From a virus: a DNA stretch of 36,416 bases. The stretch is from the UHGV virus genome UHGV-1512937. One strand, 5' to 3'. The translations under genes were made by a program, and so were the position numbers. The notes beneath the pieces are model-generated. The model saw only the letters and a program-made list of their open reading frames with translations. It was not told the DNA's origin and ran no database searches. Numbering within the stretch: position 1 is the stretch's first letter; every line of letters starts with the position of its first letter. This document shows positions 30,951 through 36,416 of this stretch, piece after piece.

Positions 30951-31826
30951 ATGCGGTTATCAAGATCCTTATGTAAAGTAGTTGGCGATGTCATTGCTAA
31001 CTCAGGCTCTCATGCAGCTTTAGATACGTTATTTCTTACTTCGGGAGCACCAGGAAACCCTCCGGCAGGATCTCATAGTACAAAATGGAAAGACTGGTTA
31101 TTTCTTGCAGGGCAAGATCCAGATACAGATAGTCTGGCAGTTCTGGGCGGAGTAATTGAGGAGTTTATGGATTTACCTCCAAAAGAAGGTACTCCCGAAT
31201 ATGCAGAATGGAAGGAAAAACGAGACAGAATTGAAGCTGTGTTACAAGAGAATGGACTTAGATATTATCGTTTTGGTCGAGTGTTGCCTGAAGGCCACAT
31301 CCCGTCACACAATATGGATTACCCAGAGACCATAATTACTTATCAACAGCCAGTAATGCCAGAAAAAGTTGAGAACTTACTGGAAAGGCTGGTCAAAGGC
31401 TTACAGCGAGCAATGCATCCACTTACTCATAGGCGAAAAGGAAGCCAGTCATTATCTTTTAGCAATGAATATGACGTGCAAGACCTTCTCCATGCATTGC
31501 TCAGACCATGGGTTCAGGACATCCGCCCAGAAGAGTTTACTCCAAGTTACGCTGGTTCAAGTACTCGAATGGATTTTTTGTTACCTGCGCATAAATTAGT
31601 ACTGGAAACCAAAATTGTTCGTGATCGTTCTCATGCAAAGAAAATCGGCGATGAACTTATTATCGATATAGAGCATTATCGTCGGCACTCTGATTGCAAA
31701 AATCTCTGGTGTGTCATCTACGATCCGAACCAGCTTATTACTAATTCTGAGGGGCTGAAATCTGATCTTGAGGGGAAGAGAGTCTCTAAAGACGGAGAAC
31801 TTATCGTCAAGGTTTTCGTAATTTAA
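30951..31826 (+). CDS. AT-rich inserted gene; protein with C-terminal PD-(D/E)xK-like motif (putative nuclease, candidate defence/abortive-infection gene)
   Basis: 291 aa; much lower GC by eye than flanking baseplate genes; C-terminal EYDVQDLLHALL ... RMDFLLPAHKLVLETKIV matches the E ... D ... ExK layout of restriction-endonuclease-fold nucleases. Confidence 0.55.
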   Translation: MRLSRSLCKVVGDVIANSGSHAALDTLFLTSGAPGNPPAGSHSTKWKDWLFLAGQDPDTDSLAVLGGVIEEFMDLPPKEGTPEYAEWKEKRDRIEAVLQENGLRYYRFGRVLPEGHIPSHNMDYPETIITYQQPVMPEKVENLLERLVKGLQRAMHPLTHRRKGSQSLSFSNEYDVQDLLHALLRPWVQDIRPEEFTPSYAGSSTRMDFLLPAHKLVLETKIVRDRSHAKKIGDELIIDIEHYRRHSDCKNLWCVIYDPNQLITNSEGLKSDLEGKRVSKDGELIVKVFVI

Positions 31827-33912: not shown

Positions 33913-34866
33913 ATGGCAAATCTACCTGAAACCCCACAGTGGGAAGACGGCATCTACCAGATTGAGGTCTCTGACCCCGTTCTGGGCGGGCCTGACGGAA
34001 TTTCTAACCGTCAGGGTAAACAACTGGCCAGCCGCACGCTGTACCTGAAGCAACAGGTTGAAAAAGGCGGGGCTGACCTTGCGAAACACATCGCGGCAGC
34101 AGACCCGCATGCCCAGTATGCACCGAAAGCCAGTCCGGCATTCACCGGCACACCAACAGCACCTACACCTGCAAATGGCGATAACAGCAAAAAGCTGGCG
34201 ACGACGGAGTTTGTGGCCAAAGCACTTGCGGCGCTTGCAGGCAGCGCCCCTGAGACACTGGATACGCTTAAAGAGCTGGCTGACGCTCTCGGTAATGATC
34301 CAAACTTTGCGACTACGGTACTGAACAAGCTGGCGGAAAAGCTGGCTAAAGACCAGAACGGCGCAGATATTCCTGATCCTGCGCTGTTTGTCAAAAACCT
34401 TGGTTTGGGGGAAGGCTCTGCACTGCCCGTTGGTGTGCCCGTTCCGTGGCCCTCAGCAACACCGCCAACGGGCTGGCTGAAATGTAACGGCGCAGCATTT
34501 TCTTCTGAAATGTACCCCAGGCTGGCAAAGGCTTATCCGACCAATAAATTACCGGATTTACGGGGCGAATTTATCCGTGGCTGGGATGACGGACGAGGTA
34601 TTGATGCAGGACGAGAGATACTTTCATTTCAGGAAGGCACTATCGTCTCCGGTTTTGATGATAATGATACTGGGGATATCAGTTCACTCAGCTCAACACA
34701 ATACGGATTTGGTGACACTTTAACCTCTAATCAATGGGGGGCCATAAATGGCAAAAAGTGGATATTTGATGCATCCAGTAAAGGTGCCAAAAAATATGAC
34801 TGGTGGGCTTATGTATCAGCTCGTCCGCGTAATATTGCATTTAATTACATCGTAAGAGCGGCATAG
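33913..34866 (+). CDS. tail fibre protein with lambda Stf / P2 H-like C-terminal receptor-binding domain (cassette V1 fused to the constant part)
   Basis: 317 aa; TLDTLKELADALGNDPNFATT resembles the conserved fibre repeat of P2 H and lambda Stf; the C-terminal part (GEGSALPVGVPVPWPS ... LPDLRGEFIRGWDDGRG ... NIAFNYIVRAA) resembles the lambda Stf C-terminus and tail-collar domain. Confidence 0.85.
   Translation: MANLPETPQWEDGIYQIEVSDPVLGGPDGISNRQGKQLASRTLYLKQQVEKGGADLAKHIAAADPHAQYAPKASPAFTGTPTAPTPANGDNSKKLATTEFVAKALAALAGSAPETLDTLKELADALGNDPNFATTVLNKLAEKLAKDQNGADIPDPALFVKNLGLGEGSALPVGVPVPWPSATPPTGWLKCNGAAFSSEMYPRLAKAYPTNKLPDLRGEFIRGWDDGRGIDAGREILSFQEGTIVSGFDDNDTGDISSLSSTQYGFGDTLTSNQWGAINGKKWIFDASSKGAKKYDWWAYVSARPRNIAFNYIVRAA
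34388..34413. promoter_or_regulatory. Hin/Gin-family (serine invertase) crossover site inside the tail fibre ORF
   Basis: TTGTCAAAAACCTTGGTTTGGGGGAA matches the remembered hixL sequence (TTATCAAAAACCTTGGTTTTCAAGAA) at about 21 of 26 positions and Mu gixL similarly; it lies exactly where the fibre constant part meets the variable C-terminus. Confidence 0.6.
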
Positions 34867-34870
34867 AAAC

Positions 34871-35305
34871 GTTGGTTTGGGGGAAGGCTCTGCACTGCCC
34901 GTTGGTGTGCCTGTTCCGTGGCCCTCAGCCACACCGCCAACAGGCTGGCTGAAATGTAACGGTGCAGTATTTTCTGCTGGGAAGTACCCCAAACTGGCAC
35001 AGGCTTACCCCACCAATAAATTACCGGATTTACGGGGCGAATTTATTCGTGGCTGGGATGATGGACGTGGAGTGGACAATGGGCGAGCATTATTAAGCAG
35101 GCAGGAGGCTACAAATTTTTCTTATTACGGAGGTAATTTCGATATTGGGTCTGGTCATTCAATCAATAACTATGACCAAATCGTTGACAACCAACCTGGA
35201 TTCTCCCGTTTTTCATTTGCAGGTCCTTCGCGAGGCGATGGGGTTAATTTTGTGACCATTCGTCCTCGTAATATTGCGTTTAATTACATCGTAAGGGCAG
35301 CATGA
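34871..35305 (+). other. promoterless alternative tail-fibre C-terminal cassette V2
   Basis: Open frame beginning with the same ~200-bp conserved 5' module as V1 (GEGSALPVGVPVPWPS ... RGWDDGRG) and ending with the same conserved C-terminus (RPRNIAFNYIVRAA), with a divergent central region; no ATG start or RBS. Confidence 0.6.
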
Positions 35306-35309
35306 AAAC

Positions 35310-35792
35310 GTTGGTTTGGGGGAAGGCTCTGCGCTGCCCGTTGGTGTGCCCGTTCCGTGGCCCTCAGCAACACCACCAGCAGGGTGGCTGAAATGTAACG
35401 GCGCAGCATTTTCTTCTGAAATGTACCCCAGGCTGGCAAAGGCTTATCCGACCAATAAATTACCGGATTTACGGGGCGAATTTATCCGTGGCTGGGATGA
35501 CGGGCGAGGGATTGATGCAGGACGTGCTTTATTGAGCTTTCAAACTGGGATGCTGGAAAAACACCGCCATATTGTTGTAGCTAACGATGGGTATGACACA
35601 AAGGATGAATGGGAGTTGGCCACAATTTTCAAAAAAACATATTCACAAGGCCGGGGACTTGATGCTGCAAATACAGGAGGGAGTTTGATTCCATCACCAA
35701 CGCTTCATTCACGAGGAAGTATTGGTAACACTGGTGGTAGTGAAACTCGCCCCCGCAATATTGCATTTAACTATATCGTGAGGGCGGCTTAA
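35310..35792 (+). other. promoterless alternative tail-fibre C-terminal cassette V3
   Basis: Same architecture as V2: conserved 5' module nearly identical to V1, distinct central region, conserved end (RPRNIAFNYIVRAA). Confidence 0.6.
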
Positions 35793-35798
35793 TTATAC

Positions 35799-36416
35799 TC
35801 AACTGGCTGCTGCCAGAGGCATTTCCGGCCAGTTGATATCCGGTGCAGTGCTGATGTCAGTCGCATTAAGCGCATCTATGAAATCAAGCACGGCGTTTAG
35901 TTTTTCCGTCTCCTGGGGCGTCAATCGGCGTCCGGCTCGTAGTTTGAGATTAATAAGCTCAACAGATGCCATTGCCTGTTCCTCAAGTTGCTGACGATGC
36001 GCTCCGGCAGCTTCCAGTTCTGCTGCGTGCTGTCGTCTCGTATCTGTCACCCAGGTCTCACCATCCCAGACATCATAGATGGTAGCTGGCTGTTTCACCG
36101 TCGTATCTGAAGGGTAATCTCCCGGCTGTGTGATTTGCACAGCGTTACCATTCTCTGTGCTGTAAACCGTTTCGCCTCTGTGGTCTGGAACATATTTCCA
36201 GATGTTCTGGTCGGTATCACGACAGACAGCGAAGCCGGGGCGTTTTTCTGGTGGCGCGTCAATGCATGAGTGAGCCGGAATTCCAACACCATAAGCGAGA
36301 TATTCAACAGTGGCAGAGAGATATTCACGGTTTTCAGCATCGTAGTTATAAACGGTAATATCGCCTGCAGTTATAGCGATACCATTCTGATCAAGTACTG
36401 CAGCAGCATTATTCAT
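35799..36416 (-). CDS. tail fibre assembly protein (lambda Tfa / Mu U family), convergent with the fibre cassettes
   Basis: 205 aa; DHRGETVYSTENG and TDISTAPDINWPEMP resemble lambda Tfa (DHRGKTVY ..., VDTSTAPDIEWPAVP). The ATG coincides with the last three bases of the window, so the start cannot be confirmed from upstream sequence. Confidence 0.8.
   Translation of the reverse strand: MNNAAAVLDQNGIAITAGDITVYNYDAENREYLSATVEYLAYGVGIPAHSCIDAPPEKRPGFAVCRDTDQNIWKYVPDHRGETVYSTENGNAVQITQPGDYPSDTTVKQPATIYDVWDGETWVTDTRRQHAAELEAAGAHRQQLEEQAMASVELINLKLRAGRRLTPQETEKLNAVLDFIDALNATDISTAPDINWPEMPLAAAS

Follow-up and report, generated by a model that had tools for sequence, protein, structure and literature searches.

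The viral genome UHGV-1512937, a stretch of 36,416 nucleotides (hereinafter, the window), carries towards its right end a tail fibre gene that is located directly 3' of the baseplate genes W, J and I and contains, within its open reading frame (ORF) at codons ~159-167 (..FVKNLGLGE..), a 26-bp sequence, denoted s1, that resembles the crossover sites of serine DNA invertases. The s1 sequence is the meeting point of the unique N-terminal part of the fibre and the Phage Tail Collar domain (Pfam PF07484, residues 174-221). A preliminary description of the window, made from the sequence alone, placed a Hin/Gin-type recombination site at this boundary between the constant and variable regions of the fibre, and the comparison of genomes presented below agrees with this assignment: the constant part (Sc) is kept upstream of s1, and the C-termini are exchanged beyond it. 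In public proteins across Enterobacterales, Sc is joined to many different C-termini. Searches against NCBIfam produce no match for the fibre or for the product of tfa, the tail fibre assembly gene at the right edge of the window.

The sites recognised by invertases of the Din family are 26-bp imperfect palindromes in which two 12-bp half-sites, TTC---AAAC- and -GTTT---GAA, are separated by a 2-bp core (PMC3241671). The reverse complement of s1, TTCCCCCAAACC AA GGTTTTTGACAA, fits the dix consensus from the same source at all specified positions except one (CAA for GAA). The reference for scoring was a published compilation of Din-family target sites (PMC3241671, Table 3), complemented by the gix, cix and enhancer annotations in the GenBank entries of Mu and P1; s1 is identical to pixL and pixR at 22 of the 26 positions, to hixL and mixQ''R' at 21, and to gixL/R and cixR at 20; the gixL sequence as it appears in the Mu record AF083977 (TTATCCAAAACCTCGGTTTACAGGAA) likewise yields 20/26. 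The match of roughly 21 of 26 positions that had been quoted for the Hin and Gin sites is therefore accurate. The preliminary description further equated the position of s1 with that of gix in the Mu S gene. Indeed, a BLASTP search shows that the 25 codons around s1 encode a segment with 68% identity to residues 150-174 of Mu S, the location of gixL; nothing in the fibre aligns with Mu S beyond these 25 residues. The similar segment corresponds to positions 34339-34413 of the window and 1406-1480 of L004 (Mu S), and comprises ~25 codons including the crossover site. Three occurrences of the 19-base core AAACNTTGGTTTGGGGGAA are found in the window, compared to 0.02 expected from shuffled sequence. 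Given the identity of the 25 codons to Mu S and the recurrence of the core, the likeness of s1 to the known sites is due to homology rather than chance. As judged from these alignments, fibre genes that are unrelated in other respects seem to have acquired the motif of the recombination site from one another.

In addition to s1, which had been pointed out previously, the window contains two more copies of the site, s2 and s3, both on the plus strand and each marking the beginning of a silent tail-collar cassette, Sv2 and Sv3, respectively (Table 1). The s2 sequence is identical to three mix sites of p15B (Mr''N', O''P', P''Q') at 24 of 26 positions, and s3 is identical to four mix sites at 23 of 26. 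The variable C-terminal sequences associated with these sites, Sv1, Sv2 and Sv3, share a near-identical head (90-97% identity over ~215 bp) and a conserved 14-codon end, and differ in their middle parts. The Sv1 cassette is part of the fibre gene as assembled, and Sv2 and Sv3 have no start codon of their own. The stop codon of Sv1 (TAG, 34863-34865) falls within the left half of s2, and the stop codon of Sv2 (TGA, 35303-35305) falls within the left half of s3. The silent cassettes are treated inconsistently by the Prokaryotic Genome Annotation Pipeline (PGAP), either as a ‘phage tail protein’ with a TTG start or as a pseudogene ‘missing N-terminus’ (e.g., L006 5966-6406, L013 4007-4441 and L008 8076-8513), so that identical cassette DNA carries differing annotations. 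The ‘phage tail protein’ fragments found 3' of the fibre gene are best annotated as silent cassettes, not as pseudogenes.

Table 1. Features of the fibre module. Coordinates are those of the window; for the last two features, located past its right edge, window-equivalent positions are given, with the positions in the E. coli 8178 locus L001 in the last column.
Feature	Coordinates	Strand	Remarks
Tail fibre gene as assembled (Sc + Sv1, 317 aa)	33913..34866	+	annotated phage tail protein WP_074157625.1
Constant part of the fibre, Sc, up to the crossover centre	33913..34400	+	linked to gene I in all eight genomes compared
Crossover site s1	34388..34413	+	TTGTCAAAAACCTTGGTTTGGGGGAA = TTGTCAAAAACC TT GGTTTGGGGGAA; joins Sc to Sv1, Sv2 or Sv3 depending on the genome
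Invertible unit A, 472 bp, carries Sv1	34401..34872		delineated from genome arrangements
Crossover site s2	34860..34885	+	GGCATAGAAACG TT GGTTTGGGGGAA
Invertible unit B, 439 bp, carries silent cassette Sv2	34873..35311		Sv2 coding sequence 34877-35305
Crossover site s3	35299..35324	+	AGCATGAAAACG TT GGTTTGGGGGAA
Invertible unit C, left 1105 bp of 1612 bp	35312..36416		continues past the window to inverted s4
Silent cassette Sv3, 157 codons after the site	35316..35792	+	fused to Sc in CFIAFB20190167
Tail fibre assembly (chaperone) gene tfa, 205 aa	35799..36416	-	Pfam Caudo_TAP, E = 2e-26
Crossover site s4	36911..36936	-	L001 11012-11037; 495-520 bases past the edge
Recombinase (invertase) gene, 190 aa	36991..37563		L001 11092-11664; start 575 bases past the edge; WP_001165549.1

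Relaxed searches detect neither an invertase gene nor an inverted partner site inside the window. The preliminary description had noted the absence of the invertase gene and predicted that this gene lies just past the right edge, proposing to look there for an inverted copy of the site within a few kb. Three chromosome assemblies of Escherichia coli strain 8178 (a mouse isolate from Zurich) match the window with 100% identity, and the sequence to the right of the window, taken from this strain (locus L001), contains both predicted elements. The inverted site, s4, is located 2.5 kb from s1, has the core TT like s1, and is identical to the p15B site mixMI''L' at 25 of 26 positions; it is the starting point of a fourth cassette, Sv4, which is encoded on the minus strand immediately outside the window and precedes tfa. 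The distance between the centre of s4 and the start codon of the invertase gene is 67 bp, equal to the spacing between gixR and gin in Mu.

The invertase consists of the Resolvase and HTH_7 domains and contains the catalytic Ser9 in the motif RVSTNDQ. It is 74% identical to both Mu Gin and Cin, and its best PDB matches are the Gin structures 4m6f and 3uj3 (E ~1e-90). The NCBIfam search yields only sub-threshold matches to generic serine recombinases. Closer relatives are found in an IncY P1-like plasmid (95% identity of the recombinase) and in a Punavirus phage (~90% DNA identity of the gene). Invertases that depend on Fis are characterised by the residues Q-x-x-R-L in DNA-binding helix 1 and by a basic helix B (PMC3798978), and an alignment shows that both the Q-x-x-R-L signature and the basic helix-B residues are conserved in this protein. 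The gene also includes a homologue of the enhancer annotated in P1 (cin nt 19-90), with 58 of 72 positions identical and no indels, and two G-N13-C 15-mers at nt 22 and 71, as in gin. By analogy with Hin, Gin and Cin, strand exchange probably depends on Fis and on an enhancer located in the 5' end of the invertase gene.

Eight genomes, parts of which are identical or near-identical, were compared with respect to the arrangement of the three units (a prime denotes an inverted unit). In five strains, the prophage resides in the host gene yehQ; the order is A B C in 8178, A B C' in FEA3 (Harbin), A C' B' in DEF10 (Harbin) and in 3-72 (Guangzhou), and B C' A' in DEF2 (Harbin). Among the prophages with other insertion sites, GABEEC10 has A C' B' and CFIAFB20190167 has C A' B', and A31 is diverged (93-99% identity), with five cassettes and five sites. 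Thus, the isolates represent five arrangements overall, four of which (ABC, ABC', AC'B' and BC'A') are found among the strains that share the insertion site, and yet these five strains show 0 mismatches in 5.9 kb of flanking sequence. Unit A adjoins Sc in the plus orientation in 8178, FEA3 and DEF10, and is inverted and distal in DEF2 and CFIAFB20190167, and the entire unit C is inverted in FEA3, DEF10, 3-72, DEF2 and GABEEC10. When, in silico, the 8178 sequence is cut after position 13 of the sites and the segments are inverted, the sequences of FEA3, DEF10, 3-72 and DEF2 are obtained with 0 mismatches over 5,743 bp. All four left half-sites keep their upstream context, and the cassette bodies move together with the polymorphisms that start 8-15 bp past the site. 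Exchange is exact and reciprocal in these natural isolates, and the comparison indicates conservative reciprocal inversion between sites. With the four sites oriented +++-, three units (472, 439 and 1612 bp) and four C-termini, the rule of half-site polarity allows exactly 12 isomers, all of which can be reached by inversions alone, and every observed arrangement fits this rule.

These arrangements bear directly on the possibility that the locus is a two-state switch like the G segment of Mu, in which only s1 and s4 recombine, and s2 and s3 are inert by-products of cassette duplication. The layout of the invertase and the distal site does copy that of Mu, and the half-sites of s1 are the most symmetrical (8/12 identical positions vs 5/12 in each of s2, s3 and s4). 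However, exchange involves s2 and s3 in addition to s1 and s4: FEA3 has the flanks of s3 and s4 interchanged, DEF10 has those of s2 and s4 interchanged, and the right flank of s2 is also swapped in 3-72 and GABEEC10. Furthermore, s2 and s3 match functional p15B mix sites at 23-24 of 26 positions. Because the natural isomers ABC', AC'B' and BC'A' require exchange at s2 and s3, the two-state model can be considered refuted, and we assign it next to no probability.

The same polymorphisms are relevant for a second alternative, namely, RecA-type homologous recombination between the ~215-bp heads of inverted cassettes, in which case the hix/gix likeness would be simply inherited coding sequence. 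The similarity of the heads is sufficient for homologous exchange, and the number of cassettes varies (five in A31), which may reflect such events. However, at least four independent events can be distinguished, and in each of them the cassette body retains the polymorphisms found 8-15 bp 3' of the site, and Sc retains position 12 of s1, so that the exchange is confined to 21-30 bp of the ~240 bp of homology. In addition, an intact invertase of the Gin/Min class adjoins the distal site in every genome examined. RecA-type recombination is therefore an unlikely source of the observed isomers, although marginally less so than the two-state switch.

The Min-type reading that we favour over these alternatives predicts that each of the four cassettes is fused to Sc in some genome, and all four predicted fusions are indeed present as exact public protein sequences: Sc-Sv1 on 20 contigs, Sc-Sv2 (306 amino acids) on 224, Sc-Sv3 (322 amino acids) on 28, and Sc-Sv4 on 10. 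Among the genomes compared here, Sc-Sv2 is expressed in DEF2. This supports the suggestion of the preliminary description that the fibre C-terminus is switched by a serine invertase, as do the invertase gene, the inverted s4 and the natural arrangements. Activity in ancestors followed by freezing of the system in 8178 would be compatible with the identical arrangements of the three 8178 isolates. Nevertheless, the recombinase ORF of 8178 is intact and encodes a protein identical (WP_001165549.1) to that of the sister strains, which differ from 8178 only by inversions. Given that the sister strains show zero substitutions in 5.7 kb, the inversions are recent, and the relic scenario is unlikely, with a probability as small as that of the two-state switch.

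Taken together, these observations are best compatible with a multiple DNA inversion system of the Min type (p15B-like) that resides in a Mu-like transposable prophage and in which s1 is the crossover site proximal to the fibre, and we hold this assignment with high confidence. Thus, the earlier reading is refined from a fibre switch in general to a four-site, three-unit system of the Min/p15B type, with four C-termini and a single tfa, rather than a two-state G segment of the Mu type. In the proposed mechanism, the four sites, with their common half-site GGTTTGGGGGAA and core TT, would be acted upon by the invertase in any pairwise combination in which the two sites are inverted relative to one another, i.e., s4 against the directly oriented s1, s2 and s3 in the window's state. 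Successive inversions would permute unit A (Sv1), unit B (Sv2) and unit C (Sv3, the opposed tfa and the opposed Sv4), generating the 12 isomers. The cassette adjoining s1 would be read in frame with Sc and, therefore, the fibre would acquire one of four receptor-binding tips. By extension from Hin, Gin and Cin, invertase dimers would bind the sites and form a synapse with the Fis-bound enhancer on supercoiled DNA, followed by a staggered 2-bp cut at the central TT, subunit rotation and religation. The topological requirement of these enzymes would favour inversion and disfavour deletion between the three direct sites; therefore, Sv2 and Sv3 are expected to be expressed only via multi-step paths. 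From the state found in the window, each of these two cassettes reaches the expression position after two inversions.

Several considerations weigh against this interpretation. The evidence of inversion in this prophage comes from the comparison of isolate genomes, and the three sequenced 8178 isolates all share one arrangement, so switching in the lysogen may be slow. The comparison places the exchange within the ~21-30 bp that are identical between the partner sites, and homologous recombination, if confined to these 21-30 bp, would yield the same products. The proposed closeness to Min derives from the homologue in the IncY P1-like plasmid and from the published mix sites, and the suggested roles of the enhancer and Fis derive from homology.

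For the four tips, tfa is the only tail fibre assembly gene, and it belongs to the same invertible unit (C) as Sv3 and Sv4. The ATG codon of tfa overlaps the stop codon of Sv4 (TAATG; L001 10515-10520), which suggests that tfa is translationally coupled to Sv4 only. The orientation of tfa is that of the fibre and the late operon in six of the 12 isomers, none of which expresses Sv3. A promoter and terminator scan of the module yields fewer matches than shuffled sequence and provides no support for a tfa promoter or for terminators between the cassettes. It is conceivable, if rather doubtful, that inversion sets both the choice of the tip and the supply of the chaperone, a second on/off layer, or else that a chaperone is dispensable for the folding of three of the four tail-collar tips. 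To our knowledge, neither gating of a chaperone nor chaperone-free tips have been described for Din systems. If inversion does gate the supply of the chaperone, it would amount to a hidden on/off layer, and this is the only part of the system with some potential for novelty.

The carrier is a Mu-like transposable prophage of ~37.5 kb that encodes Mor, GemA, Gam, a MuB-like ATPase and a DDE transposase; the early genes are located on the strand opposite to the late genes. In the mouse strains, the prophage interrupts yehQ of the host, the gene from which the first ~96 bases of the window derive. Other insertion points include the vicinity of aqpZ in GABEEC10, the pdu region in CFIAFB20190167 and a location near yccX in A31, and the similarity between strains ends at the same prophage end. 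In the 8178 chromosome, four to five places per record match related tail-collar cassettes; these presumably are other prophages with their own invertases, and trans-action between the inversion systems of this strain is possible, by analogy with the proposal made for E. coli EC958.

Between the baseplate genes V and W, the window contains an additional ORF (30951-31826, plus strand, 291 amino acids), the C-terminal half of which is the REase_DpnII-MboI domain (Pfam E = 4e-47) and which also matches the PADLOC ‘Aga_Helical-REase’ models. No methyltransferase gene is annotated beside this ORF, and the A31 prophage lacks the insert, so that V and W are adjacent (L008). One may speculate that this is a defence-type accessory gene that relies on the Dam methylation of the host.

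Outside the Mu-like prophages, the closest relatives of the module are found in P1-like elements. In a phage collection, nothing closely related to the module over its entire length is detected, and a P1-like phage, with 82% identity over 37% of the query, ranks first. About 200 PLSDB plasmids, nearly all of them ~95-kb non-mobilizable elements, carry a related module with 80-90% DNA identity. In the IncY plasmid that was examined (L011, NZ_CP023961.1), a long S gene is followed by several tail-collar cassettes, which are present in both orientations, and then by a single tfa and the invertase gene, and a P1-like Punavirus phage (L010, ON470615.2) shows the same sites. In the latter record, homopolymer errors split the invertase gene into ‘Hin1’ and ‘Hin2’. 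The homologous cassette cluster in these two records, together with the 95% identical invertase and the near-identical invertase-proximal site and its flank, suggests that P1-like plasmids and Mu-like prophages have exchanged the module as a whole. In Salmonella Typhi, a homologue of the fibre with ~78% identity is very common (hundreds of contigs, often mislabelled ‘Gifsy-2 prophage tail fiber protein’), and many partial cassette proteins are detected as well; given these two observations, the same shuffling system is probably present in this bacterium.

Thus, a four-cassette fibre shuffler of the p15B type takes the place of the textbook two-state G segment in a Mu-like prophage that is widespread in E. 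coli and has relatives in Salmonella (including Typhi), Klebsiella, Enterobacter, Citrobacter and Serratia. The virions released by a single lysogen could therefore represent up to four receptor specificities. At this module, differences between the assemblies of clonal strains are to be expected for reasons unrelated to descent, and the near-clonal mouse strains constitute a natural series for measuring the switching. A reading of the sequence correctly recognised the recombination site and predicted the content beyond the window.

Inversion mechanisms of this kind have been known since the 1980s, and the feature described here is a further instance of a well-known kind of host-range switch, in this case, in a four-cassette form within a Mu-like prophage. 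Like the G segment of Mu, the module immediately follows the baseplate genes near the right terminus of a Mu-type genome; within the fibre gene, the location of the site is equivalent, inside the 25 homologous codons, the 67-bp spacing between the site and the invertase is preserved, and the invertase is 74% identical to Gin. However, the Mu system comprises two sites and two states, and each alternative has a chaperone of its own (U, U'), whereas here there are four cassettes, four sites and one tfa; the core is GA/TC in Mu but AA/TT here, and the remainder of the fibre has no detectable similarity to Mu S. In prophage Phi2 of E. coli EC958, inversion at a near-identical site has been observed in PacBio reads (Forde et al. 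2014, PMC4134206). The EC958 prophages resemble the present module in having a tail-collar variable part and a 26-bp site within a ~200-bp repeat, and the 3' site of Phi2 shares AAACGTT GGTTTGGGGGAA; they differ in that these are two-state segments in other prophages, with a separate downstream gene for each alternative. The Hin/hix, Cin/cix and Pin/pix systems belong to the same Din family, and the enhancer annotated in cin is homologous to the corresponding region here, but Hin inverts a promoter rather than coding ends, and Cin and Pin are two-site systems. The R64 shufflon follows the same logic, with several cassettes shuffled by inversion so as to change the C-terminus of one adhesin; however, Rci is a tyrosine recombinase that acts on unrelated sfx sites, so this is an analogy, not homology.

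The most similar system is Min of p15B, a multiple inversion system with mix sites that was reportedly described by Sandmeier, Iida and Arber in 1990-92. The shared features are the presence of more than two 26-bp crossover sites in both orientations, with overlapping invertible units, and mix-type sites, with identity at 25 of 26 positions for s4, 24 for s2, 23 for s3 and 21 for s1; the cassette-side half-site TTCCCCCAAACC together with the core AA is identical to that of three of the six mix sites. Here, the constant part comprises a short N-terminus of 165 residues, compared to the ~950-residue S protein of the P1 type in p15B, and the carrier is the ~37.5-kb Mu-like transposable prophage rather than a P1-like plasmid. 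Moreover, the four sites and 12 isomers of this module contrast with the six sites of p15B, for which 240 isomers are possible. The IncY P1-like relatives of p15B (NZ_CP023961.1) share with the prophage the tail-collar C-terminal cassettes, the single tfa and the location of the invertase at the end of the cluster.

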